A DNA stretch of 63,981 bases, filler included, from Malassezia furfur (lineage: Eukaryota): assembly GCA_052055015.1 (NCBI GenBank). It is 6 parts of 6 records of this genome, joined end to end, with 100 filler letters (N's around TTAATTAATTAA, not from the genome) between each part and the next. Parts side by side here need not be neighbours in the genome. Positions count along the whole stretch, not along the records: positions 33,064 to 43,937 come from JBQJIT010000381.1; 5 more parts are not named here. One strand, given 5' to 3'. Position 1 is the first letter of the stretch. Each line of letters starts with the position of its first letter. This document shows, piece after piece, positions 12,477 through 55,011 of the stretch. The position numbers and the translations under genes were made by a program. The notes under the pieces are model-generated. The model did no database searches and was not told the DNA's origin. It saw only the letters and a program-made list of their open reading frames with translations.

Positions 12477-12521
12477 GGGTACGAAAGTATGGGATTCGGC
12501 TTGGGTATCGTAAGGGAATAG

Positions 12522-17790: not shown

Positions 17791-18244
17791 CACCGCTGAG
17801 CACAAGCCGTGTCGGTGCGAGCACGTGACACACCGTCGCTGCCCCACGCGCAGATCCTCCACGCCGATGTAGGGCGCGCCGGCCCACGCGACCGAGAGCG
17901 ACGCCGCGGCGGCGCGACGACTCAGCGGCATTCAGCCAGGGAGGTTCGATAGAGACGGGTAGGAAGTAGGGCCTGCCGTGCATAGAGAGGCCAGCCAGGT
18001 GACTCGTAGTATGGAGGAGTATGGACAAAGGCAGCGGCTCGGCGTGGCCTACCGCACGGACCACAACGACTGCTGCCGAGACCGTGGAACGACCGGGTCG
18101 TGCACATAGTGAGCACACAAGACGTGCGTCGTTGCAACCATCAGCGCCCTGCTCCGCGCCACGACGAGTGGAGGAGGCGTCAATCCGCCAAATTGGTGCA
18201 CTTCCACCTTCCTGACGAGTGGAGGCCGCCCAAGCCCGGCGTGG

Positions 18245-20523: not shown

Positions 20524-20568
20524 CTATTCCCTTACGATACCCAAGCCGAATCCCATACTTTCGTACCC

Positions 20569-21096
20569 CTACTCTGCGACCTGGTTCAGGTTTGAACGGC
20601 GCGTCGTGGAGCTTTCGCGGCGCCGTACGTCGGACGGCTCGCGCGAGCGCGAGCGCGACAAGGACCGCACGAGACCCGCGACGCGGCCGGGTCCTGTAGG
20701 CGTGGAGCGGCGCCCACGCTCCTCCTCCTGGGGGAAGGGCATATTGCCGCGGCCGCCGCGCCCCGTAGTGTGATAGTGCTGCCGGAGCTCGGCGTCCTGC
20801 ATTTCGTCGAGCTCGCGCTCGTCACGCTCCTCGCGGCGCCGGTCCGCGGGGTCGCGCGACGGGGAGCGCACGTTGCCGACGCCGCCGCGGCCGACGTGCA
20901 TGATGTGCGGCGTCTCCTTGGGCGTGTCGTCCTCGTCGTTGGCGGAGTCCTTGCTTGCGTAATGGATCTGGGGTAAGCCGTGTGCACGCACGTTGCCGGC
21001 GCCGCCGCGCCCTGTCCCGGTCATGGTGCGGCCACGCTCCGGCGTGGCCTCCTGCTCCGTCTTCTTCCCGCGATGGAAATGCTCGAGGAATGGCAT
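20569..21096 (-). CDS. DUF3602 / Par32-like protein, mirror copy
   Basis: Reverse-complement copy of 11949-12476. Confidence 0.7.
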   Translation of the reverse strand: MPFLEHFHRGKKTEQEATPERGRTMTGTGRGGAGNVRAHGLPQIHYASKDSANDEDDTPKETPHIMHVGRGGVGNVRSPSRDPADRRREERDERELDEMQDAELRQHYHTTGRGGRGNMPFPQEEERGRRSTPTGPGRVAGLVRSLSRSRSREPSDVRRRESSTTRRSNLNQVAE

Positions 21097-21197
21097 GAGG
21101 GGCAGTCGCACGCCGCTCTCTGCCAAGATAAGCAAAGGCGCCAAGGCCGATCCTATCGGGCACGCCCGATCACTTCCTATCGGCATCTCGATAAGCA

Positions 21198-21980
21198 CTA
21201 CGGCAGCTGCGCGGGCGACAGGGGCATCAGCAGGTCGTGCCCCGGCGAGAGCGTCGCGGACGCCTCGTTCAGCCGCAGGAAGTTGGGGTTCGCGCTGAGC
21301 AGCTTGCGCTTCTTCTTGCGTGCAGGCGACGCATCGCCCGCATCGAGCATCGGGGTGGACTCCACGTCCAGCGCCAGCGCCGACGTCGCGCCGGCGCGCC
21401 GCAGCATCGGCGTCATGCCCGGCTGCAGCACCGCAGGCTCGGGCGTGGCGGAGGGCTCGGGCCGTGGGCTCTCGCTCCGCGCGATGCCAAACGCCTCGAG
21501 CGGCGGCGCGGGCGGCGAGCTCGACGTATCCGGCTTCTTGCGCGGTCGGCCCTGGGTCAGTGCGGTGCGACGTACGCGGGGGCGGGGCGCGGGACGCTCG
21601 GGGAGTGGGCGTGCGTCCAGCACGGGGCTCGAAGCCTCGCCCGCACTCTCGTCGAGCACGGCAGGCATCGGCGGCTCCGGCGGCTCCGGTGCCGGCGCGT
21701 CGGCCACGTCCAGCGACGCGGCGCGCGGCGCGCGCAGCTGTAGCTCCTGCAGCCGGCGCTCGGCCCGCTGCCGCGCGCGCGTCTCGTCTTCGAGGCGCTG
21801 CTGGAGGTCCGCAAGCTGTGCGGCATCGCCGCCGGCCTGCTCGCCGCGCCACTTGTAGAGGCCTAGTAGGAAACTCGCATGGCTCTTCACGACGCGCAGC
21901 TCGCGCGCCAGCTCGGCGTTGGCGCTCTGCAGCTGCAGCACCTCGTTCTCGCACACCACCAGGCGCACGTCCGCCGAGTC
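21198..21980 (-). CDS. Hypothetical coiled-coil protein fragment, mirror copy
   Basis: Reverse-complement copy of 11065-11847. Confidence 0.55.
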   Translation of the reverse strand, partial: DSADVRLVVCENEVLQLQSANAELARELRVVKSHASFLLGLYKWRGEQAGGDAAQLADLQQRLEDETRARQRAERRLQELQLRAPRAASLDVADAPAPEPPEPPMPAVLDESAGEASSPVLDARPLPERPAPRPRVRRTALTQGRPRKKPDTSSSPPAPPLEAFGIARSESPRPEPSATPEPAVLQPGMTPMLRRAGATSALALDVESTPMLDAGDASPARKKKRKLLSANPNFLRLNEASATLSPGHDLLMPLSPAQLP

Positions 21981-22080
21981 NNNNNNNNNNNNNNNNNNNN
22001 NNNNNNNNNNNNNNNNNNNNNNNNTTAATTAATTAANNNNNNNNNNNNNNNNNNNNNNNNNNNNNNNNNNNNNNNNNNNN
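21981..22080. other. Artificial contig-joining linker
   Basis: N44-TTAATTAATTAA-N44. Confidence 0.98.
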
Positions 22081-24350: not shown

Positions 24351-27300
24351 ATGACCCTCGTTGTGAACGCGGCGCTGGGCGTGCTGGGCCTCATGGTCCT
24401 GCGCCTCGGCGTGTGGGCAACTGTGCTCACCACGGCACTTGTCGTGCTCATGCTTTGTCACCCGATGGTACACACGTTCCTCGAGGTCACGGTGCCGAAC
24501 CGCCTCGTGTCTGACCAAAGCACCGCACGGGACGAGGCGCATGTGCGCGCGCTGCAGGGACGCCTTACGCACCTCGCCCAGCAGCCCAAACACACGCTGC
24601 AGGGACAGGGGCGCATGGGCCTCGATAGCGTGCCCGACGAGCTGCGCCCCGAGCTCACGCAGCTCCTCGCGCTCATCCAGCGCGACTTTATCCAGTACTG
24701 GTACGACCCTCTCACGTTGGGCGACACCACCTTCCCACGCGAGGCGATCGGCAGCTTGGAGCACCTCATTTCGCAGGTATCGCTGCGTCTCGAGCAGTTC
24801 CGCCGCGCCAACGTCGCGACCGAGCTATCGCTCACGGTGCTGTCGGTGCTCGTTGCGGCGCTGCGTCGGCGGCGCACGGCGCACGGCGCCGAATCAGCTG
24901 GCGCCGTGCCCGGCGCCGCCGAGACGCTCGGTCCGGGGCTGTGGAAGAGCTCGGCGGAGCGCATTGAGAGCTTGCGTGCGTCGATCTCGACGCTGCTCTT
25001 GCAGAGTCTGCCGTACGAAGACCGCAAATCGCCCGCCCTCGTCCAGCTGCTCACAGAAGTGTTGACGAAGCAGGCCTGGGAGACGATCCAGTCGCAGAGC
25101 GACCCGGATGTGCTCAACCAATACATTGTACAGTACGGGCAAAAATCGGCCGGCACCGCCATCACCGCTATGGCACTCGGCGAGGTGCCCGACGACGTCG
25201 AGGCAGCAGCGCAGCGTAGCGCCGATAACATGCTGCACTCGGCGCCGGACCTCGCGTCATCGGTGACCTCGACGCTCGGGTCGGCCGTCGCTGTCTCGGC
25301 GCCAGCCGTCGCGGGCGCCGCCGAGCAAACGGCAGGGGTGCTGCAAGAGGCATATGCGGCGCTCGCGGGCGCCGTGGTCGGCGACGAGGCAAGTCTGCCG
25401 CAGGATGCGTCTGCGGCACAGCAGGCGGGCACGGCGCCAGCGGTGGAGCAGCGTGCTGAGACCCGTCCTGCCGCGGCCGCCGCGCAGCCCAAGGCTGCGG
25501 CCAAGACCGAAGGAAAGGCCGAGACGCACGACCCGCGCGCGGCGGCGCCCACCGAAACACCCAGCGCTCTTCGCCCTGCGGCGCAGGCTGAGGCGCCGGG
25601 CAAGGCGCCCTCGACGGCGGCCCCGCCGGCGCTTCCTAAGCGCACCACTGCTAATGACGCTCCGCGCCCTGCGGACACGTCGACGCCTGCGACTACCGAC
25701 ACGTCGCGTGCGTCGTCACCTACAAAGCCTTCGCGCGCGCCGCTCGCGGCCGCCCCTCCCGTCTCACCGCGGCCCGCGTCGACGCCCGTCGATGCTCAGG
25801 ATAAGGTGCGCGACCTTTTGTCGATGGACGACGACACGACGAATCCGTGGAGCACCGACCCTGCCCCGGCGGCTCCGCCCAAAACCGCTTCGAGTCTTGC
25901 ATCGGGGCCGCACCAAGGCGCGCTCATCGACGCCCACCTGCTGGACCTTGATAACGAGCTGGACGAGGCGCCGCGTGCGCGGCCGATGGACATCCCGAAA
26001 GAGATGCGCGAGCCGCCGCTGCCGCAGAGCCTAAAGCAGAGCAAGTACGACGCGCCGCTTGCCTACGAGCCGCGGCGGAGCCATTCGCCGCGCCCGGTGG
26101 CGATCGGCGACGTGCTCGCGAGCCGCGACCCCGAGCAGCTTGATCCGTTTGAGAGCTACGTGGCGAGCATCGATGGCGCGCATGTCGCACAGCGCCGGCG
26201 CCCCGAAGGCGCGGTGCTGATGCAGCTGCATGCGAACCTCGACGCGCTCGCACGCACCGCGGACCACCATTCGACGACCCCGGAGCTGTTTGAGAGCGAT
26301 GTGCGTGCAATCCTGCAGCATGCACTCGACATGCTGCCCGAGCACGAGACGCCGCCTGCGACGCGCAACGCCCATGTGCGCCCGGCGATCCGCGCGGCGC
26401 TCGACCGCCCATTGACAACGCCGGCGTCGATGAGCAGCGTACAGCAGGTCGTTCTTGCGCGACTGCAGCAGCTGTGGGACGCGTACGTTGCGCACACCGC
26501 GCCGCGCCGGTTTGCGTACGAGCCACGGCGCCCGCCGTCTCGTACGTCGTCGAGCACGGGCGTGGCGCGTGTGCGTTCGCCGGAGCTGCAGCGCAACGTC
26601 GCAAGCACCGAGGGCATCACGACCATCTCGGTGGTCGACGTGAGTGCGAATTCGGAGCGGGTGGGCCCGATCGACGTGCGCACGCTGCAGGTGCTCATTT
26701 CGATCGAGGACATGGCCAGCAACACGGGCGGCTACGTCCTGCTCCGTTCCTGGGCGCAGTTTGAGGCGCTGCACGCCGAGCTCGAGCGTATGTACGCACA
26801 GCGTCCGGCCGACACGGTACTGAGCGCACCGCCGCCGCCGCTGCCGTCGCTGCGCGGCAAGTCGAGCCCGGCGGCATGCGAGGCGCTGCAGGCGTACCTC
26901 ACCGCGCTGCTTGTGCCGAAGAACGGCGCGGTGACTTGGTACAGCACGACGCAGGCAGTCCAGCGCTTCATCGACAAGACACGCGCCGAGGACGAGCCGC
27001 TGCGCAAAAACTCCAACTTGATATCGAGCATCGGCGACGTGGGACGCAGCTTCGCGAGCGGCGTCACCAGCGCCGCGGGGTCGGCGCGCAAGGGCCTCGG
27101 CCAAGGCATCGGGCAGATCGGGGCGGTCGCGCCGTCCGCAGCCAATGCGCCTGCGCGCATCGGCACGGGGCTGTCGCGCGGCCTGTTCGGCGCCAAGGAG
27201 CCGCGCAGCGGTGGCGCCCTTGCGTCGCCTGTGTCGTCGACGCGGTCGTCGTTCGACGACCGCTCGCTGCTGGACGCCAGCACGGAGCTGCCCAAGCCGC

Positions 27301-28169
27301 CGCTTCCCGCACGCTCGCGCACGAGCCAGCCGCTCGAGCACCACGACGCGACCAGCGACAGCGGACGAGGCACAGCGTCCGACTCAGAAAAGGCACCACG
27401 CCCCGAGGCGCGCAGCCAAGCCGAGGCTCCCGGCACTGCCGAGTCGCGCAGCTCGTCTGAAACGCGCGACACGTCGGCGGCGCCTGCACCCAAGCGCACG
27501 CAGTCTGCTGACGCCGCCAAGCCGGTGCCCACCCTGCCGCCGCGTAAATCGAGCGACGCGCCGGGCGATAAGCCGAGCAAGCCGAGCGGCAAGTCGAGCG
27601 ACAAGCCCAAAAAGGCTGAGGCGGCAAGCGCGACACCGTCCGCTGCCGAGGAGGCCGAAAACCTGACGCCCCAGGACATTGACGCACTGCTCACCGCCGT
27701 CTTTGCCGTGGTGCACGAGGCGTTCAACCTGCAAGGCGCGTGGACACTGCGGCGCGGTCTGCTGCGTGTGCTAGAGCAGGTCGTGCGTACGACGTACAGC
27801 ACGAGCGTCGTGAGTACGCTCGTGTACTTCTCGTCGACGCTCACGCTCCCTGCGCTCGCATCATGGCTCGAGGTGTTGCGCACGACGCTCTGGCCGAACG
27901 GCGTGTGGAAGAGCGAGGGAGCGCCGCCGCGCACCGCCGCAGAGAAGCAGGCGACCGCGGCCGAGGCGCACGAGATCGTGTTGAGCTACACGCCAACCCA
28001 GGCCGCGTATGCGATCGGAATGGGCGGCAAGCAGACGTGTATGGACGCGCTCGCAACCGTACACGAGGTGGTCACCGACCCCGTCGTGTCGCTCGACCTC
28101 CACCTGGCGCTCGTGCTGCGCGTGTTGGACTTGGCCATGGGCACGGCATCGGGCGATCGGGGTTTGTAG
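24351..28169 (+). CDS. PXA / PX / nexin-C domain sorting-nexin-like membrane protein (Mdm1/SNX13-like architecture)
   Basis: N-terminal TM segments; PXA-like LIQRDFIQYWY; PX-like LLRSWAQFEALHAEL..PPLP..LQAYL; nexin-C-like WTLRRGLL..LWPNG. Confidence 0.75.
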   Translation: MTLVVNAALGVLGLMVLRLGVWATVLTTALVVLMLCHPMVHTFLEVTVPNRLVSDQSTARDEAHVRALQGRLTHLAQQPKHTLQGQGRMGLDSVPDELRPELTQLLALIQRDFIQYWYDPLTLGDTTFPREAIGSLEHLISQVSLRLEQFRRANVATELSLTVLSVLVAALRRRRTAHGAESAGAVPGAAETLGPGLWKSSAERIESLRASISTLLLQSLPYEDRKSPALVQLLTEVLTKQAWETIQSQSDPDVLNQYIVQYGQKSAGTAITAMALGEVPDDVEAAAQRSADNMLHSAPDLASSVTSTLGSAVAVSAPAVAGAAEQTAGVLQEAYAALAGAVVGDEASLPQDASAAQQAGTAPAVEQRAETRPAAAAAQPKAAAKTEGKAETHDPRAAAPTETPSALRPAAQAEAPGKAPSTAAPPALPKRTTANDAPRPADTSTPATTDTSRASSPTKPSRAPLAAAPPVSPRPASTPVDAQDKVRDLLSMDDDTTNPWSTDPAPAAPPKTASSLASGPHQGALIDAHLLDLDNELDEAPRARPMDIPKEMREPPLPQSLKQSKYDAPLAYEPRRSHSPRPVAIGDVLASRDPEQLDPFESYVASIDGAHVAQRRRPEGAVLMQLHANLDALARTADHHSTTPELFESDVRAILQHALDMLPEHETPPATRNAHVRPAIRAALDRPLTTPASMSSVQQVVLARLQQLWDAYVAHTAPRRFAYEPRRPPSRTSSSTGVARVRSPELQRNVASTEGITTISVVDVSANSERVGPIDVRTLQVLISIEDMASNTGGYVLLRSWAQFEALHAELERMYAQRPADTVLSAPPPPLPSLRGKSSPAACEALQAYLTALLVPKNGAVTWYSTTQAVQRFIDKTRAEDEPLRKNSNLISSIGDVGRSFASGVTSAAGSARKGLGQGIGQIGAVAPSAANAPARIGTGLSRGLFGAKEPRSGGALASPVSSTRSSFDDRSLLDASTELPKPPLPARSRTSQPLEHHDATSDSGRGTASDSEKAPRPEARSQAEAPGTAESRSSSETRDTSAAPAPKRTQSADAAKPVPTLPPRKSSDAPGDKPSKPSGKSSDKPKKAEAASATPSAAEEAENLTPQDIDALLTAVFAVVHEAFNLQGAWTLRRGLLRVLEQVVRTTYSTSVVSTLVYFSSTLTLPALASWLEVLRTTLWPNGVWKSEGAPPRTAAEKQATAAEAHEIVLSYTPTQAAYAIGMGGKQTCMDALATVHEVVTDPVVSLDLHLALVLRVLDLAMGTASGDRGL

Positions 28170-28177
28170 GCACGACG

Positions 28178-28715
28178 ATGAGCAGCGACGCGGTGCGCAC
28201 CGAGGGGTTTGTGTCGCACGCGTTTGCGCCGCAGGCCGAGTTCTTAGACAACACCGAGACGAACCGTGCGCGTCCGCTCACCGATGCGGTGATTACCGTG
28301 CGGGTAATCAAGAGCTTTGAGTATCGCACCATGAAGCCGCTCGTCCTGCACGTCGACCTGACGCAGACCAACGCCGTGCAGCTGCGCACGCGGTGCCTCG
28401 AGACGGTGCGCACGCAGCCGGCATTCAAGGCATACCGCAGTGTTGCGGACAAGCTCGGTAGGTGTACCACTGACCCAGACACGCTCAAGCTGTACACGCG
28501 CGCGCACGGTGCCAAGACGACCAACCTCATTATCAACCTGGACCACCCCGAGTGGATCCTGCAAAACGACGACAACGGCCCGCCGCTCGCGGAGCTGGGC
28601 ATCGGTACGTAACGCCGCTGACCCAGAAAACGAAACGGAGCTCTCGCTGTTCAACCGCGAGGCCTACGACGCGTTCCTGGCGAACCCCCAGACGCGGTGG
28701 GATGCTTCGGGATAG
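28178..28715 (+). CDS. AIM29: DUF2340/UPF0538 ubiquitin-like protein (Aim29/C2orf76)
   Basis: ITVRVIKSFEYRT. Introns 28458-28478 (21 nt) and 28605-28626 (22 nt) give DTLKLYTRAHGAKTTNLIINLD and GIENETELSLFNREAYDAFLANP..W. Confidence 0.88.
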
Positions 28716-32963: not shown

Positions 32964-33063
32964 NNNNNNNNNNNNNNNNNNNNNNNNNNNNNNNNNNNNN
33001 NNNNNNNTTAATTAATTAANNNNNNNNNNNNNNNNNNNNNNNNNNNNNNNNNNNNNNNNNNNN
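32964..33063. other. Artificial contig-joining linker
   Basis: N44-TTAATTAATTAA-N44. Confidence 0.98.
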
Positions 33064-33103
33064 GCAGCTGCGCACGGAGCACCGTGAAGCCGCCGAGCAG
33101 ACC
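33064..33103 (+). repeat. 40-bp direct repeat identical to 33835-33874
   Basis: GCAGCTGCGCACGGAGCACCGTGAAGCCGCCGAGCAGACC occurs at both positions, 771 bp apart. Confidence 0.92.
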
Positions 33104-34138
33104 AGGGGCCTCGCCGGAAGCCTCGTCTTGCGTGCCAGCGGCGTCGGCGGCGTCCGCTGCCGCGGCCTCCTCGTCGTCCCCCGTCGCCTTCGCCGCCGGG
33201 ATGCCCGCGGCGGGTATGTGCGAGCTCTTGGGGTCCGGCGTCACCATGCGCATGCGGTGCTCGGCGTCCTCACCGACCTGCTCGGCGGTGAGCGTGGCCA
33301 ATTCCGGCTCCTGCGCCGCGACGTCGTCGACGTACGCGGGGTCCGCATCGAGCGGCAGCGTCGCGAGGCGCGCAAACAGCTCGCGCGTCATGCGCAGCGT
33401 GCGGTGCTCCGCAGAGCGGCGCAGCGCCGTCGAGAGCCGCGTCTGGCAGCACATGCTCAGGCACGTCTCCATCATCTCGCAGATGTTCTGGTCGCCGAGC
33501 AGGTCGACGAGCGGCGTGCCCGGCGTGCCGTCCGCGGCATGCACACGCCCACACACGAGCTGCTCCATCACGTCGAGGATCGCGAGCAGCACCACCTCGT
33601 CCTTGCCCGCGTCCGACGGCTCGAAGCGGCAGTGCGACGCGGCATGCGCCACGTCCTGCACGGCGCGCACGAGGCCGATGCTGTCCTCGCGGAAGAGGCC
33701 GTGTTGCAGGAACGTCGCGAGCGCCTCGAGCACGGTGTGCGTCACGACGCTCGTCGTGCGCGCGCTCAGCACCACGCGCAAAAAGTGGCTCAGCAGCGCG
33801 GGCAGCGGCACTTCGGTCACGTCGCGCACCATGCGCAGCTGCGCACGGAGCACCGTGAAGCCGCCGAGCAGACCGACGCTGCTCTCGGCACGCGCATCGC
33901 CCGTGCCATCCTCGTGCGCGAGCGCGTACGCGGCGCGCGTCAGGCTCAGCGCCGACGTCGACGTCGTCGCCGAGCTCAGCAGCGCGTTCGGCGCCGTCGC
34001 CGCGAGCGCCCAGCGCGGGCTCGAGCGCATCGCAGAGGTCACCGCATTGATCTGCCGGATCACCAGGTGCATCAGCGCGCCGCGCTCGTCGTGCGCTGCG
34101 CGCGCACGGCGCTCCGTCGCTCCGCGGCCCCTCGTCAT
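33064..34138 (-). CDS. GEA2: Large Arf-GEF Gea1/Gea2/GBF1, N-terminal part, 3'-truncated
   Basis: AVTSAMRSSPRW, ASHCRFEPSDAGKDEVVLLAIL, ICEMMETCLSMCCQTRLSTALRRSAE (DCB region). Confidence 0.88.
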
Positions 34139-34194
34139 GCAGGGCAGCGGTCCACCCACGTCGAGGAATTATGCCCCACGCACCTCCGTTGCGC

Positions 34195-34581
34195 ATGGCC
34201 ACCGCGGCGCCGAGCGACGCCCGCCAGCAGAACCAGCAGCGCTTCGCCCGCGACCTCGAGTTTTTGTCGGCGCTGTGCAACCCGTTCTACCTGCACCAGC
34301 TCTCGCAGCAGGGATACCTGGACGACCCCAACTTCCTGCGCTACCTGCGCTACCTCGAGTACTTCCGGGCGCCGCACTACGTCCAGTACCTCACCTACCC
34401 GCAGACACTCTACTTCCTCGATCTCCTGCAGCATGCCGAGTTTCGCTCGGCTGTGGCCGATACGGCCTGGCCTCATGACACCGCGGCCAAGCAGATTGCT
34501 CACTGGGCGACCTGGCGCCATCGCGACGCCGCTCGCAACAGCCGCAGCCCCACGCGCCAGCCGGACGGAGGCGCCGCGTGA
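34195..34581 (+). CDS. SOH1: Mediator subunit 31
   Basis: RFARDLEFLSALCNPFYLHQL..FLRYLRYLEYF..YLTYPQTLYFLDLLQHAEFR. An alternative in-frame ATG lies at 34171. Confidence 0.95.
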   Translation: MATAAPSDARQQNQQRFARDLEFLSALCNPFYLHQLSQQGYLDDPNFLRYLRYLEYFRAPHYVQYLTYPQTLYFLDLLQHAEFRSAVADTAWPHDTAAKQIAHWATWRHRDAARNSRSPTRQPDGGAA

Positions 34582-35173
34582 CGAGGCGATCCGCGCACCG
34601 CTCGTCCGCCTCGTCGACCCCAACTCGGGCAAGGTCACGGGGCCGTTCAAGCCGCAGGACATTGTCGCCAAGATCGACCGCAAGGCGTTCGCCCTCGTCC
34701 AGGTCGCGCCGGGCGCCGCAAGCGCCGCGAACGCCAAGACTGCCCAGGCCGCCTCCTGGACGATGGACGAGCTGCCCGTGTGCAAGCTCGTGTCGAAGCG
34801 CGACGAGTACCACAAGCAGCGCGAGGCTAAGAAACGCGCCCAGTCGCACGCCGCACCCACCACCACCAAGGACCTGCAGCTCACATGGGGCGTGTCGGGC
34901 AACGACCTCGCACACAAGCTCTCGCGCGCACGCAAGGACCTCGCGCGCGGGCACAAGGTGCACGCCGTGATCCTCTCGAAGAAGGGCACACGCCGCGTCT
35001 ACCCGGGCACGCCCGAGGACGCACAGCGTGTGGAGCTCGTGCGCTCCATCCAGGACGCCCTGTGTGTCGCCGAGGACAACGATACCCCCGTCGCCCGCGT
35101 CACGCAGGGGCCCGAGTGGAAGAACCAGCGCTCCCTGTGCGAGCTGCACGTAGAGCCGCTCGCCGCGCCGTAG
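34433..35173 (+). CDS. Mitochondrial translation initiation factor 3 (IF3-like), overlapping SOH1/MED31
   Basis: PRDEAIRAPLVRLVD..LVQV..PVCKL (IF3-N) and KDLQLTWGVSGNDLAHKLSRARKDLARGHKVHAVI (IF3-C). The N-terminus from ATG 34433 is Arg-rich and lacks acidic residues, like a presequence; alternative ATG at 34475. Confidence 0.8.
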   Translation: MPSFARLWPIRPGLMTPRPSRLLTGRPGAIATPLATAAAPRASRTEAPRDEAIRAPLVRLVDPNSGKVTGPFKPQDIVAKIDRKAFALVQVAPGAASAANAKTAQAASWTMDELPVCKLVSKRDEYHKQREAKKRAQSHAAPTTTKDLQLTWGVSGNDLAHKLSRARKDLARGHKVHAVILSKKGTRRVYPGTPEDAQRVELVRSIQDALCVAEDNDTPVARVTQGPEWKNQRSLCELHVEPLAAP

Positions 35174-35187
35174 CCTCCACCTCCACT

Positions 35188-36645
35188 ATGACGCCCGAAG
35201 AAGCGACGCGCCTGCTGCCGGCGCGCGCCTGCCTGCTCCTGCAGGGCCTGCCGCGCGGCGCACACATCGCGCTCGACCTGCGTGCGGCGCAGGTAGACAC
35301 CCAGTTCGAGGGGTACAAGCTCGTTCCGCCGGGCGTCCACTGCCTCACGTGGCAGGCCGCAGGCGCCGACGACGGCATGGCCGCCTCGGGGCTGCGCACG
35401 GCCCTCGTGCAGTACACACAGCCCCAGCAGGTGCTCGGCCGGCGCTACGACGCGGAGGCCGATACGTGGCGCACGCTCAGCAACGTCGGCGACGCTCACC
35501 TCGTCGTCGCGCCCGAACACCTCCGCACCCTCGACCCGCACCTCGCGCCGTACGCCGCCAGCGACGCGTGGCCGGCGCTCACGCGGCACCTCGACGCGGA
35601 CCGCACGACCGTAGCGCGCGTGTTTGGCGTGCGGTGGGGCGCGGACGCGACGTGCGACTCGTTTACGCCGCTCACCGAGCACCCAGACGTCCTCAGCGAC
35701 CGCGAACTGCGCACGCCCAGCGCCGCGCAGGAGGGCGTGCAGTTCTCGTCGATGACGACGCACCGCCGCGCCAACGACGCGCGTGACGACCCCGAGATCC
35801 TCGTCGAAGGCGCCGCCTCGGACGCCGAGAGCGACGCCCCGTCGTCCTCCGACGAGGACGACACGCCGCACGAAGCGCCGCACGCCGCTTCGGCCGTGTC
35901 GCTGCAGTGCACACCGTTTGCGCTCGACCGTAGTTGGCCGCCCGAGGCGCGCGGTGTGGACCGCACGCGCTTCCGCTTCGACAAGTCGTGGCTCCTTGCC
36001 GATGTGCTGGAGCGCGCGGCCGCGGCGGACGCGGCCTACGCTCGGCGCCTGCGCCGTCCGGCGCCGCCCGCCGCGCCAGCGTACGGTGCGCTGCTGCGCG
36101 AGGCCGAGCTCGTGTTCATCCTGTTCGTGCAGGCTAACAATGCCGCGGCGCTGGAGCACTGGCTCGCGCTACTGACCCTATTTGTGCGTGCGTCGTCGCG
36201 CCTCGGCGCGCCGAGTCACTACGACCTGCATCCGTGCGAGTGGGAGCAGGACACAGCGCGCCCGACGCAGCCGCAGCTCGACGCGCACATCGCGTTTGTC
36301 GAGCTGCTTACTGCGCAGTTCCGTGCGCTCCCAGACGACGCATGGACCGGCGACCTAGCCACGTCGGAGCCGCGCGTGCTCAGCGACCTCGCCGAGCTGC
36401 GGCGCAACATTGCGCGGTCCCTGGGCGCCTGGGCCGCACGTGCGCCGGTGCCGGACGCGGCCAGGCCCCCGCCGCCGCCGCACGAGGCCCTGCTGCGCGC
36501 ATGGAAGGCGCTGAGCGCGACGGCGCATACACGCTTCGGCTGGTCGCTGGACGCCGTGCTCGACGAGGAGGACGAGGCGGACGAGGCAGAGGACGGCGAC
36601 GATGCACCCGTCGTCGTCGAGACTGGATACCCCTATACACTGTAG
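35188..36645 (+). CDS. AAR2: U5 snRNP assembly factor Aar2
   Basis: LPRGAHIALDL..FEGYKLVPPGVH, LDPHLAPY, RTRFRFDKSWLL, LLREAELVFILF..ALEHWLALL, EDGDDAPVVV. Confidence 0.88.
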   Translation: MTPEEATRLLPARACLLLQGLPRGAHIALDLRAAQVDTQFEGYKLVPPGVHCLTWQAAGADDGMAASGLRTALVQYTQPQQVLGRRYDAEADTWRTLSNVGDAHLVVAPEHLRTLDPHLAPYAASDAWPALTRHLDADRTTVARVFGVRWGADATCDSFTPLTEHPDVLSDRELRTPSAAQEGVQFSSMTTHRRANDARDDPEILVEGAASDAESDAPSSSDEDDTPHEAPHAASAVSLQCTPFALDRSWPPEARGVDRTRFRFDKSWLLADVLERAAAADAAYARRLRRPAPPAAPAYGALLREAELVFILFVQANNAAALEHWLALLTLFVRASSRLGAPSHYDLHPCEWEQDTARPTQPQLDAHIAFVELLTAQFRALPDDAWTGDLATSEPRVLSDLAELRRNIARSLGAWAARAPVPDAARPPPPPHEALLRAWKALSATAHTRFGWSLDAVLDEEDEADEAEDGDDAPVVVETGYPYTL

Positions 36646-36921
36646 CTGTACATAACGCCACCGCCTACACTCCCCCTTGTGTGCTCAGCATTGCAGAATC
36701 AAGACGTCCCCACGGAAGTGTCGGACGGATAGGTATGTAATGTGATATGGTTGCTCATCCTCGCACACAAAGGACCGCGCACGGCGCGCGCGCGCACTCC
36801 ACCTTCGCGACTCGAAATTCGGCCGAGTGAAGAACTACATTGTCCACGTGACCCGGCGCAGCAGCACGAAGAGAAGCGCCCGCGAGCGCCGCTGCGGCTC
36901 TCTTCATCGAGTCGAACAACC

Positions 36922-37744
36922 ATGGGACGCGGTACGTACACCGTCCAGCTAACATGTAGTGATCCGTGCTCAGCGTAAGAGCGGTGGCATCTTCAAGGCT
37001 CACACGCGTCTGAACAAGGCTCCGGCGAAGCTCCGTGCTTACGACTTCGCCGAGCGCAACGGCTACATCCGTGGTCTTGTCAAGGAGATCATCCACGACG
37101 CTGGCCGGTATGTTTGACGCATTTTGCTGACCCACAGTGGTGCTCCCCTTGCCCGCGTGACGTTCCGCGACCCTTACCGCTACCAGCTGCGCACCGAGAC
37201 CTTCATTGCTGCTGAGGGTATGCACACGGGTCAGTTTGTGTACTGCGGCAAGAAGGCGCTCCTGAGCGTCGGCAACGTGCTCCCCCTGAGCTCGCTCCCC
37301 GAGGGTACGATTGTGTGCAACGTCGAGGAGAAGTCGGGTGACCGTGGCGCGCTTGCCCGCACCTCGGGCAACTACGCGACCGTCATTGGCCACGACACCG
37401 ACAACAACGTCTCGCGCATCCGTCTCCCCTCGGGTGCCAAGAAGACCGTGTCGAGCTCGGCGCGCGCCACGATCGGTGTTGTTGCTGGCGGTGGCCGTAT
37501 CGACAAGCCCCTGCTCAAGGCCGGCCGTGCCTACCACAAGTACAAGGTCAAGCGCAACAGCTGGCCCCGTACTCGTGGTGTGGCTATGAACCCCGTGGAC
37601 CACCCGCACGGTGGTGGTAACCACCAGCACATTGGTCACTCGTCGACCGTCAAGCGCGGCTCCGTCCCCGGTCAGAAGGTCGGTCTCATTGCCGCCCGCC
37701 GCACCGGTCTCCACCGCGGTACCACCAAGGTCCGGGACGCCTAA
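36922..37744 (+). CDS. RPL2: 60S ribosomal protein uL2 (L2/L8)
   Basis: MGRVIRAQRK after removing intron 36932-36959 (28 nt); second intron 37108-37137 (30 nt); [23 protein letters not shown]. Confidence 0.98.
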
Positions 37745-38123
37745 GCGCCCTCCGGTTGCTTGCGTGGATGCTTGGGATTTGATAGCTCTGGCCCATGGCT
37801 TGATGATGTACTCTGCCGGCCTAAGCCCACACAGGACACAAAATGTATGCGTTTCCGCACACGATGCTCGTTGATTAGGATAGACTAAGTGTCAGCACCT
37901 ACGTGCGCGGCGCGTCACAGCTGCCTGCGCGCCGTACTCTATAGACGCGGCGTCAGTCGGCGCGGCGGCGCGGCCGCCGAGGCAGTCGCCTGCGATTTTT
38001 TTCTTCGCTGCCAATCCTCCAGCCTCGGCGTGCTGCCCAATCACGCGCAAGCGCTTTTCCCCTCGCTGAGAATTTAGGCTGCACTCCTCCTCCACGCCGA
38101 CCGCGCTTGATACCCCGCGAGGC

Positions 38124-39557
38124 ATGGCGGCTACGCTGCGGCTCCTCACTGTACTGGCCGCAGCATATGCGCAATGCACGCGCGCACAGAATGCAACGGT
38201 GCCCACGGGCACAGGAACTGACCCGGCCTGGCTCGAGTACGATGCGCCGTTTGCGCAGCTCATCCCTCCCATCTTTCGCGTCCTGCTCATGATCGCACTG
38301 GGGATCGTCGGGTTCGGCACGGATCTCAACGTCCTGCAGCACTGGGGGATGAACATTTGGAGCAATGCGGGGCCGACGCGCCTGCCGGTGCACCGCACGG
38401 TCCAAAGCGCGCGCGATACCCTGCGTGAGAGCGGCGCCATTTCCCTCTACGTCTTGGCCGGCGCGCACTGCGCGTGGCTGCTCCTGTGCTGGGCGCTGTA
38501 CCGTGTGACCGTGGACCCTGTGAGCCACGAACGCACGCTCCTGGCGCAGTGCTGGGAGGTCGTTGCCTTCGCCGGCCTGCTCGCCTTTTGGTTCATCCCG
38601 AACCCGTTTTGGCACGCGCAGCGCGCCTCGATGCGGTACGTGTACGCACTCATATCCAGCCTGCTCAGCCGCATCTTCTCGCTCTCGCTAAACCAGACCA
38701 TCCAGTTCTCCGACGTGATCTTTGCCGACGTGCTCACCTCTTTTGCCAAGGTGCTCGGCGACGTGTGGCTTTCGCTGGTGGTGGTAGCCTACTCGGTCTG
38801 CAGCGTGCCCGTCACCGAGCGCCTCCTGTGGTCACAGCAAGCGAGCCTGGCAGTGCCGCTGCTGATCAGCGTGCCGTACCTCGTGCGCTTCCGGCAGTGT
38901 GTCTCTGAGTACCGCACGTCGTCCCCGCTCGGCCGCACGTCGCGGTCGACGCGTCCGCTGTACAATGCACTCAAGTACGCCTCGGCGTTCCCCGTGATCT
39001 GGCTGAGCGCCTTTCAGTGCAAGACGCCCGATACCCAAATCCCCGGCGAGCCAGGACACCATGCGCTGTTTGTGAGCCTGCATGGCTTTGTACAGATCCT
39101 GTGGCTCATCGCCGTACTCTTCAATACCCTCTTCTCGTTCTGGTGGGACCTGACGAACGACTGGGGCCTCGATTTGCTCCTCCCGTCGTCGTTCATGGCA
39201 TTCCGCACCGTGCACCTCCCCGAGCTGCATCGCCGCTCCGAGTCACGCACACATGTATTGCGCGCGGACGACGACGACGGTGTCGAGCTTCCGGCGCGTC
39301 CGGCGCACGCGCGGCGGGGGAGTATCCTGCGCGTACCCGAAAAGCCGCTGCCGCTGCCGACGACCGTGTACTACGGTTTCATCGTGGTGAACCTCGTGCT
39401 GCGGTTTACGTGGTCGCTCAAGCTCAGCTCGCACCTGCAGTACCTCGTCGAGTGGCAGCGCGGGCTGTTGCTGCTCGAAGCGCTCGAGCTCGTCCGGCGC
39501 ACTGTGTGGATCCTGCTGCGTGTCGAGTGGGAGCTGGTCAAGCGCGAGGCTCTTTGA
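38124..39557 (+). CDS. ERD1: EXS-family membrane protein, Erd1-like
   Basis: FSDVIFADVLTSFAKVLGD, RFRQC, NALKYASAFPVI, SFWWDLTNDWGL, LRFTWSLKLS, LELVRR..W..LRVEWE. Probable 24-nt intron at 38636-38659. Confidence 0.85.
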   Translation: MAATLRLLTVLAAAYAQCTRAQNATVPTGTGTDPAWLEYDAPFAQLIPPIFRVLLMIALGIVGFGTDLNVLQHWGMNIWSNAGPTRLPVHRTVQSARDTLRESGAISLYVLAGAHCAWLLLCWALYRVTVDPVSHERTLLAQCWEVVAFAGLLAFWFIPNPFWHAQRASMRYVYALISSLLSRIFSLSLNQTIQFSDVIFADVLTSFAKVLGDVWLSLVVVAYSVCSVPVTERLLWSQQASLAVPLLISVPYLVRFRQCVSEYRTSSPLGRTSRSTRPLYNALKYASAFPVIWLSAFQCKTPDTQIPGEPGHHALFVSLHGFVQILWLIAVLFNTLFSFWWDLTNDWGLDLLLPSSFMAFRTVHLPELHRRSESRTHVLRADDDDGVELPARPAHARRGSILRVPEKPLPLPTTVYYGFIVVNLVLRFTWSLKLSSHLQYLVEWQRGLLLLEALELVRRTVWILLRVEWELVKREAL

Positions 39558-39592
39558 CAGAGTGGTGTACATCTATCTACCTTCTTTTCTCT

Positions 39593-40101
39593 CTACCAGC
39601 TGCGGTACGGCACAAAGGCGCCATCGAGCGTAATCTTGACGCGGTCGCCGTCCGGGCCTTGTATTTTGTCGACGTGCACACGCAGATCGACCGCACTCAT
39701 GACGCCGTCACCACACTGCGTGAGTGCACGGCGCACACCTTTTCTTGGATCAGGCCTAGGATCGGACGACCATATACCATAAAGACTTCATACAGGCGGT
39801 ACAGACACGGCTCGCTGGGCGGCACCGGGTCTAGCCCTCCGCGGCGTGGTGTGAAACGAGCGGGGCCCAGATAATGCGAGATGGAATCGCGGATCCGCAA
39901 CAGACCTTGGAGCTTGCTGGCTTCCTCTTGCGTGGGCATGAATAAGCCATAGAAGCTGCATCAAGCACCGCGAGCGTACATGGCTGCTACATAGACCTCG
40001 TCTTTGTCGAGTTCCTGGGCAATGTCGCTAAACTTGAGCCGCCCATTCGCTTTGGAGAAGCGCATCCTGGCCGAGAACTGGTCCTGGGTCAGTTCGTCCA
40101 T
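39593..40101 (-). CDS. CYN1: Cyanate hydratase (cyanase), divergent paralog
   Basis: Introns 39956-39979 (24 nt, in-frame stop) and 39716-39738 (23 nt). [48 protein letters not shown]. Confidence 0.88.
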
Positions 40102-40431
40102 TTCGGCGGTTCTGTCTCCACGCACCGTGCAAGTGAGCCGGCTATATTACCACGCACCGCGCGAGGACCATGCCGGTCAGCTTGGCTCGGCCTGCGCGCG
40201 ACTCGGTAGGGGGCATGGGCCTTGCCGCGATCATACACAGATTATGCCATAGGATGCATGCGCCTTCACAGCCCTGCGGCGTGGCGGCACTGGGCGCTCC
40301 ATTCACTAGGTGGCCCCTGCGCAGCAAAACCCCTCCGCGCGTCGGTCTCGTGCCGATGGACGCAAGGCGAGGGCCGTCGGCCGTGCCCAACAGGAGCATG
40401 CAAGAGTAGTGTAATGTACATCTATCGCGCT

Positions 40432-40939
40432 CTACCAACGGCGATAGGGCAAAAACTTGCCGTCGAGGGTGATTTTGACGCGGTCGCCCTTGGGGTCCTC
40501 GACCTTTTCGACATGGCCACGGAAATCGATGGCGCTCATGATGCCGTCGCCAAACTGCGTCAGTGTGTGCGCACGCACCTTTTCGTTGATGAGGCTCCGG
40601 ATGGGCCGGCCGTACACCATCACGGCCTCGAACAGGCGGTACAGGATGGGGTCCTGTGGAGGCACCGGATCCAACTGCCCGCGGTCAGGGAAGTAGTGCT
40701 CGCCGAGGTACTCGCCGACGTAGTCGATGCCGAGTGCCTTGTTGAGGTTTTCGACGTCGCCCTCCTCCGGCTTTGCCTGTCCGTAGAAGCTGGGTCAGTG
40801 CGTGTGCGACGTACATGGCGGCGACGAACAGCTCGTCGCGACCGAGCTGCTGGGCGAGGTCTGCGAACGTAAGCCCCTTTTCGCTCTTGATCTGGCGGAG
40901 ACGCTCGAAGAACTGGGGGTATGTAAGGTTGGCGCTCAT
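40432..40939 (-). CDS. CYN1: Cyanate hydratase (cyanase), canonical copy
   Basis: Introns 40790-40814 (25 nt) and 40555-40578 (24 nt). [45 protein letters not shown]. Confidence 0.94.
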
Positions 40940-41183
40940 CGTGCGGGGAAGCCAAGGCAGAAGAAGTCCGGCGGCCCTCGGAGGACCCCAAGTAGGGCCA
41001 CCCGTGGGTTTCGGGCAGGCACGTCGGATGTGGAGCGAATCGGGTGCGGTGTCCGATTTCCGTTCCTGAGATCGCGCCGAGATCGCCGCGGTGCGAGCCG
41101 GGTCGATCCGAGGCGGCTTGGCGCACAGGTCGGGGCCGCGCGGCGCGTGTGCGTAAAGCAGGGAGAGTGTACATGGAGACTAT

Positions 41184-43729
41184 CTACTTGTAGCGCTTCT
41201 TGGCCGTAGTGATGTGCTTGCGCAGCCGCTTGCTCTTCTCGCGGAGCGACGCATTCTTCTTGCTGCGCACGCCCCAGCTCTTGGCGACCATCTGGAAGTT
41301 TTTCCCGCGCGCCTTTTGCCGGTTCGTGGTACTGCTGTACTGCTCCTTGTTCTTCTTGCCCTTGGAGCTGCCAAACTTGCCGCGGTCCTCGCGCCCGCTC
41401 TGAATGCTCTTCATACGCTCCTCGTAGTCTGCCTTGGCCTTCTTGCGGGGCCCCAGGATATCGCTCTCGTCCACGACGTCGCTCGTGCCGACGGCCGTCG
41501 CGCGCTTCTTGGACTGGAGCGCGGCGAGCTCGCGGCGCGCCGCGGCGCCGGCCGCGCCGGACTGCTTCGCGGCCTCCTCGGCCTGCTGCAGACGCAGCTC
41601 GTTTAGCTTGGCAAAGTCAGCGGGCGTCAGGATCTTGGTGGTGGCGAGCTCGAGCAGCTTCTCGTTGTCCTGTGGCGCCTCCTGCGGTGGTGCCTCGGCG
41701 GACGCCTCGTCCTCGTCGCTGCTCGCCTCGGCGCGCTGCGCCTTGGCCTGCTGCTCGGCACGGCGTCGGCGCCGCGCCTCGCGCACGCGCTCGTGGACGG
41801 GCCGGGTGTCCTTGGGCTGTGCGGCGTCCTCGGCGGGCTTTTCGTCGTCGCTCAGATCGAGGTCGCTGCGGTCCAGCGAAAAGTGGGAGTCTGCGTCGTC
41901 GTCGGAGCTGACCTTGATCCAGCCGGTGGACGAGTCGGAGTCGCTGTCGGAGGCCTCTTCGAGCTCCCAGCCCTGCCACTCGTCGTTGTCGTCTTCTTCG
42001 CCGGCCTCCTTCTTGTGCTCGAGGTGCTCTGCGAGAAGTTCGAGGCCCTGGATGCCGTGCACCTCGTTGCGGTCCACGCCGAAGCGCGCCGGCGATTTGC
42101 CGCCCGCGAGCGCGATGGCGCCCGCCTTGCCGCGGTCGACGCGCCGCAGCATCGCGGGGTTCACCTCGCGGTAGAGCTGCATGAGCCCGCGCGACGCGGC
42201 GCTCACGCCCTTGTCCTTCGACTTGCGGTAGTCGACCAGGTCGTGCAGCAGATCCTCCTCCATGCACCACGGCTGCCGGCGGCACACCTCGCGGATCGTG
42301 TTGATCCCCGCGGCGACCACCTCGGCGCTCACACCGGGGTGCACAAACCCGTATGCGATCTTGCGGATCGCCGGCGTGAGCATGTCGGTCGGCGACTGGT
42401 CGTGCACGGACTGCGCCAAGGAGACGAGGATCAGCGTGATGTGCAGCTGGTGCGGCACGAGGTACTTGCCGAGGTACGAGTAGAACGGCAGCACAACGAG
42501 GCGGTGCGTGCCGATCACGCGGCTCAGCAGCTGGATGATGCGCACCTTCATCTCGAGGTTGTGCCGCTTGTCGCCGCGGCTCAGATTCTCAAACAGGGCG
42601 TCGGCGAACGCCTGCGGGTCGTTCAGCAGGTGGATCGCGGCCATGTTGCTCGTCTCCTTCTCCTCCTTTTCGAGCTCCTTCTCGCTCTGCTCCTTGCGCC
42701 GGCGCCGCGCCTGGGCCTGCGCGAGCTTCAGGCGGCGCTCGCCGGCTTTGCTCTTGCGCCCGACCTTGCGCTGGTGCTGCAGGCGGCCGACGTTCGGGAT
42801 CGCCGCCTCCTGCTCGCTGCCCTCGTCGTCGCTGTCGCCGGTCGCCGACTCGGCCGCGTGCAGGTCGCCGAGGAAGAAGCGCACCGCTGACGCTTGCACC
42901 TTGGGGTGCGGGTGGACACACGCGCGCGCGAGCAGCGCGACGGTGCGTGTGTCGGTCCAGATACGCCGGCGCCACATTTCCGCCGCGACACGCACTGCCC
43001 AGAGCGCCTCGGTGCGCCCCGCGAGCTCCGTGTCGGCGCGGCGCAGCACCACCGGCCCGTTCTCCTGCATCCCGCGCTCGACCATGCCAAAGAGCAGGCC
43101 CTGCACCATGCGGTTGAGGCGCATGTTGCTCGACGCGCGGTTCGCCTGTTTGATGTCCTGCACGATGGTGTGCAGAATGGCCTTGCGCAGCTCCGACGAG
43201 GTCGTCGTGCTCAGCAGGGGGAAGAGCGTGCGGAGGAGGCTGGGTGAGGACGGTCAACGTACGTCTCGCTCGTGATCATATTGCGGTTGCGCAGCATCGT
43301 CAGCGCACGGAAGCACGCGTGGCGCACGTCAGGGCCCAGCTGGGCGTGGTGCACGAGGAGCAGCTCGGCAAGGTGGTCCGGCAGCGGCTTCGTCACCTTG
43401 GGGTAGCTCGGCGCAAGCTGCGTGACAAAGGTGAGCAGCTGCTGGAACTGCTCCTGCTGGTCCTTGGTGAGGCGCACCGCGTGCGCCTGCGCATCGCCCG
43501 CGCCCTCGACCTGCTGCCCGATGCCCGAGGCATAGATGCGGCGCAGACTCTCGTAGTGGTTCCACTGCGCGAGGAACTCTTCTGCGTACGCCTCCGGCTC
43601 GCGCTTGAGCAGGTTCTGCAGCGCGGGCAGGTTCGACGTGTTCAGAAGGCCACGCGCCTTGGACCGGTGCATGAGCCCATTCTCACGCACCATCGCCGTC
43701 GGGCGCGGTGCGGCACTCGCCTTGGCCAT
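41184..43729 (-). CDS. SDA1: 60S ribosome biogenesis factor Sda1
   Basis: NLPALQNLLKREPEAYAEEFLAQWNHY; intron 43240-43262 (23 nt); AGINTIREVCRRQP, KILTPADF, SSTTNRQKARGKNFQM. Confidence 0.95.
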
Positions 43730-43749
43730 CGTGCCGAGAAGCACCTGCC

Positions 43750-43765
43750 GAAAAAAAAAAATTTC
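43750..43765. promoter_or_regulatory. RRPE-like A-tract element in a divergent promoter
   Basis: GAAAAAAAAAAATTTC lies in the 73-bp gap between SDA1 and a probable DBP7 start, within otherwise GC-rich DNA. Confidence 0.5.
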
Positions 43766-43802
43766 GCAGGTGGAGGCGCTTCCTGCACGCACAGGGGCCA
43801 CG

Positions 43803-43937
43803 ATGGACGACGAGGACCTCTTGCTCAACTTTGACACGTCGGCGCCCGTGCGTGCGCCCAAGCGGCGCGACACACGCAAGCGCAGCGCACGGCACCAGCC
43901 GTATACGAAGCCGGCCGCGGCGGAGGCGCGCGAGGCC
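43803..43937 (+). CDS. DBP7: Probable DEAD-box helicase Dbp7, N-terminal fragment only
   Basis: MDDEDLLLNF resembles the conserved Dbp7 N-terminus. Only 45 codons are visible before the contig ends. Confidence 0.5.
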
Positions 43938-44037
43938 NNNNNNNNNNNNNNNNNNNNNNNNNNNNNNNNNNNNNNNNNNNNTTAATTAATTAANNNNNNN
44001 NNNNNNNNNNNNNNNNNNNNNNNNNNNNNNNNNNNNN
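43938..44037. other. Artificial contig-joining linker
   Basis: N44-TTAATTAATTAA-N44. Confidence 0.98.
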
Positions 44038-54911: not shown

Positions 54912-55011
54912 NNNNNNNNNNNNNNNNNNNNNNNNNNNNNNNNNNNNNNNNNNNNTTAATTAATTAANNNNNNNNNNNNNNNNNNNNNNNNNNNNNNNNN
55001 NNNNNNNNNNN
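54912..55011. other. Artificial contig-joining linker
   Basis: N44-TTAATTAATTAA-N44. Confidence 0.98.

Follow-up and report, generated by a model that had tools for sequence, protein, structure and literature searches.

Evidence for a conserved same-strand coding overlap between MED31 and a mitochondrial-type IF3 gene in Malassezia

A stretch of 63,981 nucleotides (nt) of Malassezia furfur DNA, joined from six pieces of the assembly GCA_052055015.1 and referred to below as the window, contains two open reading frames (ORFs) that lie on the same strand and share part of their sequence. The upstream ORF encodes the Mediator subunit MED31/SOH1, and the downstream one a mitochondrial-type translation initiation factor 3 (IF3), which begins inside MED31 and uses the +1 frame with respect to it. 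Comparison with related loci indicates that the two are distinct nuclear genes, each of them conserved, with coding sequences (CDSs) that overlap on one strand. The best explanation of the data as a whole, to which a probability of about one half is assigned, is that of two separate overlapping genes, with the messenger RNA (mRNA) of IF3 starting inside MED31.

Identity of the two overlapping genes

The upstream ORF matches the Pfam family Med31 (PF05669) over its full length, with 114 bits against a cut-off of 25 and with positions 1–94 of the 95 profile positions covered. A further in-frame ATG at 34171, which may be the true MED31 start, would extend the product from 128 to 136 amino acids (aa). 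It is used by the GenBank entry WFD48490.1 (M. furfur, 136 aa, 'suppressor of hpr1'), which is held by the same protein cluster as the 128-aa form.

In the downstream product, Pfam IF3_N (PF05198) was recognized at residues 50–134 of 246, with 32 bits against a cut-off of 26.9. IF3_C gave no Pfam match for the window's own protein; this domain (PF00707) is present in the orthologues P0009 and P0010. The family mIF3 (PF14877; MTIF3/Aim23) scored 20.6 bits, below its cut-off of 33.8. A profile of nine orthologues compared with the PDB matched bacterial IF3 (5me0_Y, E 1.8e-8) and mammalian mitochondrial IF3 (E of about 4e-3). The AlphaFold model of the protein has a mean predicted local distance difference test score (pLDDT) of 66, reaching about 78–92 in the C-domain, with strands and helices from residue 58 on, and residues 1–55 are unstructured (pLDDT < 50) and lie outside the fold. 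Foldseek searches with this model returned 17 matches at E <= 0.001, all of which are IF3-type chains or, by title, IF3-bearing ribosome entries. The C-domain matched IF3-C of 1tig (TM(target), the template modelling score, 0.80) and the C-terminal domain 2crq (0.67). Chains of IF3, human mtIF3 and yeast Aim23 ranked highest, the latter two with E-values of 1e-7 to 3e-4.

The IF3 domain begins at 34580, within the MED31 stop codon: the TGA at 34579–34581 straddles the IF3-frame codons CGT (34577–34579) and GAC (34580–34582). At the other end of the overlap, 83 nt (34433–34515) lie inside the conserved Med31 domain. The locus consists of two same-strand ORFs, each with independent homology, that share CDS in different frames. 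The 49 IF3 residues encoded by the overlap comprise 8 basic and 1 acidic residue, the first acidic one standing at position 46, and they form a putative mitochondrial presequence. An earlier note on this DNA, made from the sequence alone, had described the same arrangement. Its coordinates and frames for both genes proved exact to the base, its overlap of 107 or 149 nt in the +1 frame was verified together with the two candidate ATGs (34475 and 34433), and the overlapped peptide that it quoted (MPSFARLWPIRPGLMTPRPS...) is correct. Both of its gene identifications also held, Med31 with a Pfam E-value of 3.4e-33 and IF3 with an IF3_N score above the cut-off and IF3 structural matches. Failure of the downstream ORF to match IF3 profiles had been named there as a possible refutation; IF3_N passes, and profile and fold agree.

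Conservation of the overlap among Malassezia lineages

The comparison set consisted of five metagenome loci (L001–L005) of four lineages, obtained by an IF3-alignment scan of metagenome contigs. L002 and L003 belong to the same M. sympodialis-like lineage, their IF3 clustering with MSYG_2910; L004 and L005 belong to clusters that also contain M. arunalokei, and L001 represents a further lineage. The gene order (divergent gene, MED31, IF3, AAR2) is the same in all five loci; both the syntenic AAR2 downstream and the divergent gene on the strand opposite to MED31 were found in L001, L002, L004 and L005. The MED31 core QQRF...TWR (95 residues) aligns without gaps between the window and all five loci, and IF3 occupies the +1 frame of MED31 in 5/5 of them, with overlaps of 128, 149, 149, 131 and 131 nt (L001 to L005, respectively). 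This bears out the expectation of the earlier note that the overlap would be conserved in orthologous loci.

All in-frame ATGs located 5' of the IF3 domain lie inside MED31, in the window and in each of the five loci. Counted from the most downstream of these ATGs, the minimum overlap is 107 nt in the window, 32 nt in L001, 149 nt in L002 and L003, and 89 nt in L004 and L005. In L002 there is a sole in-frame ATG, immediately preceded by a stop codon. The second ATG of the window (34475) is not conserved, since P0004 and P0007 have T at the residue where the window, P0005 and P0009 have M, and since L002 has one in-frame ATG. The 232-aa form of IF3 that starts there is present in the public collection as a gene call, and the 246-aa form is absent from it.

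The first IF3 ATG is found at one alignment column in the window and all five loci. A His codon CAT contributes its second and third bases, AT, and the Ala or Glu codon after it contributes the G; in L004, where His has changed to Tyr (CAT to TAT), the ATG has survived. From the residue pair and local codon usage, an ATG at this place has a probability of 0.11, 0.42, 0.30 and 0.48 in the four lineages, and the product of the four values is about 0.007, if the lineages are independent. The curated M. sympodialis model MSYG_2910 (238 aa), which was guided by RNA sequencing (RNA-seq) and peptides, starts at the homologous Met.

The MED31 position that supplies the 'AT' was also surveyed in the proteins P0011, P0029, P0059, P0089–P0098, P0104 and P0110. 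In Malassezia-like proteins the residue is His, Tyr or Asn, followed by Ala or Glu; each of the three residues has an xAT codon and the next codon is G-initial, the DNA itself having been checked in the window and the five loci only. The distant MED31 protein P0100 carries Thr at this position, with which an ATG is impossible.

In a protein-only threading, the IF3 N-terminus of P0009 fitted 32–33 residues of the +1 frame of the MED31 proteins P0096 and P0097. Non-matching control pairs gave 1–3 residues, except for one cross-lineage pair at 21, a value explained by the shared MED31 core. We infer that a fifth lineage carries the overlap.

An IF3 domain that abuts the MED31 stop codon and lacks an ATG of its own in 5/5 loci would not be expected by chance alone, and the overlap is, as judged from these alignments, older than the split of the sampled Malassezia lineages. 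That the overlapped frame is used is argued from three points, namely the need of IF3 for a start codon and an import signal, the absence of an ATG outside MED31 and the conserved ATG inside it. Coordinates of the features are given in Table 1.

Table 1. Features of the MED31/IF3 locus and joins between the pieces of the window (positions count along the whole window)
Feature	Position	Strand	Remarks
MED31/SOH1 CDS	34195..34581	+	128 aa + TGA; Pfam Med31 E 3.4e-33
Conserved Med31 domain	34234..34515	+	residues 14-107 of 128
Mitochondrial-type IF3 CDS	34433..35173	+	+1 frame relative to MED31; 246 aa + TAG (35171-35173)
Dual-coding stretch, 149 nt	34433..34581	+	MED31 residues 80-128 / IF3 residues 1-49, putative presequence
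Second in-frame IF3 ATG	34475..34477	+	232-aa product, 107-nt overlap; not conserved
IF3 N-terminal domain	34580..34834	+	residues 50-134; Pfam IF3_N
IF3 C-terminal domain	34865..35158	+	residues 145-242 (approximate); model and Foldseek
AAR2 gene	35188..36645	+	Pfam AAR2 and AAR2_1st; ATG 14 nt past the IF3 stop
Pseudo-intron GT...AG, 121 nt	34440..34560	+	used in GenBank fusion models; judged an annotation artefact
Divergent upstream gene	33064..34138	-	ORF of no known family, truncated by the piece end
Joins between pieces	10965-11064, 21981-22080, 32964-33063, 43938-44037, 54912-55011		spacer N44-TTAATTAATTAA-N44

Expression of IF3

The favoured mode of expression is a separate IF3 mRNA whose transcription would start inside the MED31 coding region, by analogy with the way in which neighbouring genes are packed. 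The AAR2 ATG follows the IF3 stop codon after only 14–15 nt in the window (14 nt, 35174–35187) and in the M. sympodialis-like L002 (3703–3717). Elsewhere in the window, a PXA/Nexin_C gene (24351–28169, +) is followed by a DUF2340 gene (28175–28612, +), which has a non-overlapping ATG about 5 nt past the upstream stop codon. Because AAR2 and DUF2340 start 14 and about 5 nt past the stop codons of their neighbours, downstream genes here would often be transcribed from inside the upstream neighbour. On this reasoning, the AAR2 transcript must either begin inside IF3 or be shared with it, and since IF3 has internal ATGs, leaky scanning is not open to AAR2.

The PXA/DUF2340 pair was also considered as a possible further overlap. 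A longer DUF2340 ORF, from 27863, would overlap the PXA/nexin gene by about 300 nt; this extension is not needed for the domain and, given the non-overlapping ATG at 28175, the pair was rejected as an obligatory overlap. Other adjacent same-strand ORF pairs of the same family read like single genes split by introns. A Pfam scan covering 134 of the 148 ORFs of >=110 aa found no second obligatory same-strand overlap in the window.

Several results weigh against the interpretation preferred here. The argument for an internal transcription start is itself an analogy with neighbouring genes. Moreover, when the MED31 protein was held fixed and its synonymous codons were resampled according to the codon usage of each locus, the +1 frame was open by default in 90, 39, 76, 80 and 73% of the trials (P 0.90 in the window), and no selection on the IF3 frame of the overlap was apparent statistically in openness, composition or third positions. 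The overlap peptide is no more basic or amphipathic than the resampled controls, being unremarkable in net charge, basic count, hydrophobic moment and proline count, and in the two GC-rich lineages it is even less basic than they are (P(sim>=obs) 0.96–0.997). The real and simulated numbers of basic residues are 8 and 11.3 in the window and 11 and 16.6 in L002, with equal acid-poorness. At codons for identical MED31 residues, compared pairwise, third positions are identical in 53/127 cases in the overlap and in 184/318 upstream, and over the shared DNA the identity is only 25–50% in the IF3 frame, compared with 79–90% in the MED31 frame.

Two arguments of the earlier note are lost with these results. 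The reduced synonymous variation that it expected over the overlap is not seen, and the Arg-rich, acid-free look that it took as the sign of a presequence is not evidence of selection, because it is the default output of the +1 frame of MED31. This MED31 stretch is pre-adapted, in that nearly any synonymous version of it yields an open, positively charged and acid-poor frame. Mitochondrial import signals place loose demands on sequence, and a frame of this kind would be expected to be able to serve as one.

The strongest competitor, which we consider possible but rather unlikely, is that IF3 is translated from a bicistronic MED31 mRNA by leaky scanning past the MED31 AUG, in which case the strength of the MED31 start context would couple the outputs of both genes inversely. 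In the window and in 5/5 loci there is not a single ATG, in any frame, between the MED31 and IF3 ATGs (238–256 nt), and the same signature, with few AUGs before the second ORF and a weak context of the first, was shown to work in green algae, according to the available part of that report (bioRxiv 10.1101/2024.07.24.605010). Set against this is the outcome of the codon resampling, in which 71, 28, 65 and 25% of the trials, by lineage, are free of intervening ATGs (product about 0.03, if the four lineages are independent); the AUG-free stretch was consequently rejected as proof of leaky scanning. Base -3 is A at the IF3 ATG in all cases and C, A, T, G and G at the MED31 ATG, but the A is forced by a MED31 Lys or Gln codon. 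A very short leader favours the bypass of a start codon in scanning, and the MED31 leader may be very short, with the divergent gene at a distance of about 60–115 nt in the window, L002 and L004. On the other hand, a MED31 start at 34171 would add, in the window, the in-frame ATG at 34195 to those that have to be bypassed. The accessible part of the supplement to the M. sympodialis proteogenomics paper (PMC5389616) has no entry for MSYG_2909–2911 or MSY001_1996.

The start codons of the divergent gene and MED31 are 56 nt apart in the window (32 nt with the start at 34171), and about 70–115 nt apart in L002 and L004. The spacing of 56 nt leaves almost no space for a bidirectional promoter and two leaders. 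The divergent gene gave no Pfam match.

Origin of the overlap

A HMMER search of 1.84 billion representatives yielded 1503 IF3-type relatives at E <= 0.001. The best matches outside the Malassezia-like group (P0107, P0109 and P0111–P0113, with E-values of 1e-35 to 1e-44) possess N-termini of their own, of 60–90 residues and rich in Ala, Ser, Arg and Leu, which are unrelated to the Malassezia extension. Such outgroup homologues with unrelated presequences fit a replacement by overprinting, and the simplest reading is that the overprinted presequence replaced an ancestral, stand-alone one during compaction of the Malassezia genome. The proposal of the earlier note that a targeting peptide was overprinted on a Mediator gene draws support from the age of the overlap and from the unrelated long presequences of these homologues, but not from the composition and synonymous sites on which it had also relied.

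The proposed course of events is as follows. In the course of genome compaction, IF3 would have lost its ancestral presequence along with the intergenic region; an ATG within MED31, made of an xAT codon and the following G, would have taken over as start codon. In the resulting layout, MED31 would extend from 34195 (or 34171) to 34581, and IF3, in the +1 frame, would have its start at the conserved AUG 34433 and its end at 35173; this layout would go back at least to the ancestor shared by the four Malassezia lineages sampled. About 49 residues at the N-terminus of IF3, unstructured, basic and nearly acid-free, would act as the mitochondrial presequence, encoded by 149 nt that are shared with the last 49 residues of MED31 and of which 83 nt belong to the Med31 domain. 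MED31 would dominate the constraint on the overlap and the presequence would drift with the synonymous sites of MED31, which may be tolerable for an import signal.

A more specific history, in which the presequence was lost in the Malassezia ancestor, the import signal was overprinted on the conserved C-terminal region of MED31 and both genes have since been expressed from one bicistronic mRNA by leaky scanning, appears doubtful, and less probable than leaky scanning as such. If true, it would place a Mediator subunit and a mitochondrial initiation factor on one promoter, traded off against each other at one start codon, and it would provide a rare case of the birth of a eukaryotic targeting peptide that is open to dating and dissection.

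An unlikely alternative: start of IF3 downstream of MED31

It is improbable that there is no functional overlap at all, i.e. that IF3 starts 3' of the MED31 stop codon (at a non-AUG codon or at Met 34762) or is a decaying gene, the open frame upstream being a by-product of GC-rich sequence. This possibility draws on the default openness and presequence-like character of the +1 frame, on the lack of excess conservation and on an NCBI-sourced IF3 model of 136 aa (P0019), which starts at this Met (MDELPV) and is devoid of the whole N-domain. However, a start at 34762 removes the entire IF3_N domain (50–134), the invariant residues of which are kept across nine sequences, and a product starting past 34581 would have no presequence, whereas homologues elsewhere carry N-terminal extensions of 60–90 residues. 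Furthermore, every lineage has kept the ATG, also those of about 50% GC, where open frames come less freely. Decay is contradicted by clear purifying selection on IF3, the downstream protein retaining 40–75% identity among orthologues and an intact two-domain fold.

Public gene models and the fusion reading

In public models of five named assemblies and of two further proteins, the two genes are fused or IF3 is truncated. Fusion proteins, which would result from a single spliced gene, are represented by KAI3624374.1 (285 aa, M. furfur CBS14141), WFC96066.1 (282 aa, M. brasiliensis), WFD14536.1 (312 aa, M. arunalokei) and CCU99290.1/XP_018740547.1 (317 aa, the first M. sympodialis release), as well as by P0104 and P0110. 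The GT...AG pair at 34440–34560 is the one used in the models of M. furfur CBS14141 and M. brasiliensis, and its excision from the window reproduces KAI3624374.1 with 281/285 identical residues. The earlier note had seen no canonical micro-intron that would join the frames; a frame-shifting GT...AG pair of 121 nt does exist, but it is not conserved and is judged an artefact.

A genuine MED31-IF3 fusion protein is very improbable in view of the following evidence. The fusion junctions fall at five different, non-homologous places, the models of M. sympodialis, M. arunalokei, P0104 and P0110 switching frame at a separate site each. The donor GT is absent from L001 and L002, and the aligned acceptor AG is absent from the four other lineages (CGGA or CGAA); in the window and the five loci, no frame-restoring intron with splice sites conserved among species was found. 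The 121-nt 'intron' would delete the most conserved part of Med31, and it contrasts with the curated introns of M. sympodialis, which, in the part of that paper available, have a mean length of 30 bp and RNA-seq support for 99% (PMC5389616). The M. sympodialis fusion used an 'intron' of 19 nt, and the curated release replaced this 317-aa fusion by a stand-alone IF3 of 238 aa. A fusion protein would also have no N-terminal import signal. The fusion models are judged, from these comparisons, to be prediction artefacts: since ab initio predictors cannot model overlapping genes, each would have made a frame switch of its own.

With a M. sympodialis-type query and proteins of 73–235 aa, no stand-alone MED31 closer than 83% identity was found, which suggests that the curated M. 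sympodialis release retains IF3 but has dropped MED31.

Assembly context

The window is composed of six pieces of 10964, 10916, 10883, 10874, 10874 and 8970 nt, arranged by descending size with 100-nt joins between them; they are apparently contigs of a fragmented assembly, sorted by length. As separate pieces are joined at the spacers, neighbours across these points are not real. The MED31/IF3 locus lies 1.1 kb inside the piece 33064–43937, and the GC content around the overlap site is 0.68–0.72. By exact protein look-ups, the DNA falls in or next to M. furfur.

The piece 11065–21980 (10916 nt) equals its own reverse complement, forming a perfect palindrome centred near 16522, and its ORFs come in mirror pairs (e.g. 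the GAT-domain ORF 15705–16754). An artefact of assembly or amplification is its most likely origin. In the piece that carries the locus, the first 30 nt (33064–33093) recur exactly at 33835–33864, 771 nt inward, giving rise to a duplicated peptide, GLLGGFTVLRAQL, in the upstream minus-strand ORF; this repeat is probably a contig-end artefact.

A window built as a chain of small contigs, one of them a perfect-palindrome artefact, might suggest that the frame shift between MED31 and IF3 is a sequencing or assembly indel, but the probability of this is negligible: five independent metagenome contigs of related loci agree in both frames and in the overlap, the 128-aa MED31 recurs unchanged on 52 public contigs, and the public collection also contains an exact match to the 232-aa IF3. 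Sequencing or assembly error was excluded on this basis, and with it the indel near 34440–34580 that the earlier note had put forward as a way in which the overlap might be refuted.

Comparison with known systems

In the open-access literature, no description of the MED31/IF3 overlap or of any Malassezia coding overlap was found. The kind of arrangement, a different-frame CDS overlap of neighbouring nuclear genes, is already known, and the Malassezia pair is a new example of it. Human MOCS2, for instance, has overlapping ORFs. The Drosophila 'multiphasic' pairs (e.g. att-ORFA/att-ORFB) and the conserved Mocs2 bicistron likewise involve distinct nuclear genes on one strand in different frames, and FlyBase, in the portion of the survey available, lists 18 gene pairs sharing CDS in different frames, most by less than 40 nt and five by more than 63 nt, with many of them dicistronic (PMC4528330). 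The rarity claimed in the earlier note holds for the length of the overlap but, in the light of these 18 pairs, not for its kind. Compared with the pairs given there, the Malassezia overlap is long (128–149 nt), and 83 nt of it fall within a conserved domain. It also differs in being fungal, in joining functionally unrelated partners (Mediator and mitochondrial translation) and in that the stretch of IF3 shared with MED31 is a putative targeting peptide.

Green algae (Chlamydomonas, Auxenochlorella) have mRNAs with two ORFs, in which the first ORF has a weak start context and few or no AUGs precede the second, and at some bicistronic loci the stop and start codons touch. The algal ORFs described in the accessible part of that study are mostly non-overlapping (bioRxiv 10.1101/2024.07.24.605010), whereas a shared transcript is hypothetical for the Malassezia pair, whose AUG-free stretch does not reach significance with the MED31 protein held fixed. 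Polycistronic transcripts are also reported from basidiomycetes, where neighbouring same-strand genes are co-transcribed; this work concerns mushroom-forming species and, in the part available, makes no claim of overlapping frames (PMC4503453).

The locus resembles viral overprinting as portrayed in the available sections of two reviews (PMC8227390, PMC3494269), with an older, constrained frame and a younger one that is biased, disordered and fast-evolving. It differs in that only the N-terminal extension of an old cellular gene is overprinted, and in a cellular genome. As regards the product, human MTIF3 and yeast Aim23 share with the Malassezia protein the two-domain IF3 fold, extended at the N-terminus (matches of the model: 6neq_z, 6rw4_8 and 8om3_d), whereas the putative Malassezia presequence is encoded inside another gene.

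Significance for Malassezia

What makes the MED31/IF3 pair noteworthy is the length of the overlap, its reach into a conserved domain, its genus-wide conservation, the targeting signal that appears to be overlapped and the annotation errors it has caused. It would provide a genus-wide cellular example of long (128–149 nt) dual coding by two old, unrelated nuclear genes, where one frame encodes a conserved domain and the other a putative targeting signal, and it suggests that an import signal may be gained cheaply from an alternative frame. The overlap explains a recurrent annotation error in M. furfur (two assemblies), M. brasiliensis, M. arunalokei and M. sympodialis (two releases), with effects on orthology tables of Mediator and mitochondrial translation and on gene-content comparisons in Malassezia. 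Finally, the locus offers a small system, in a transformable yeast, in which an intragenic promoter and leaky scanning can be tested against each other.

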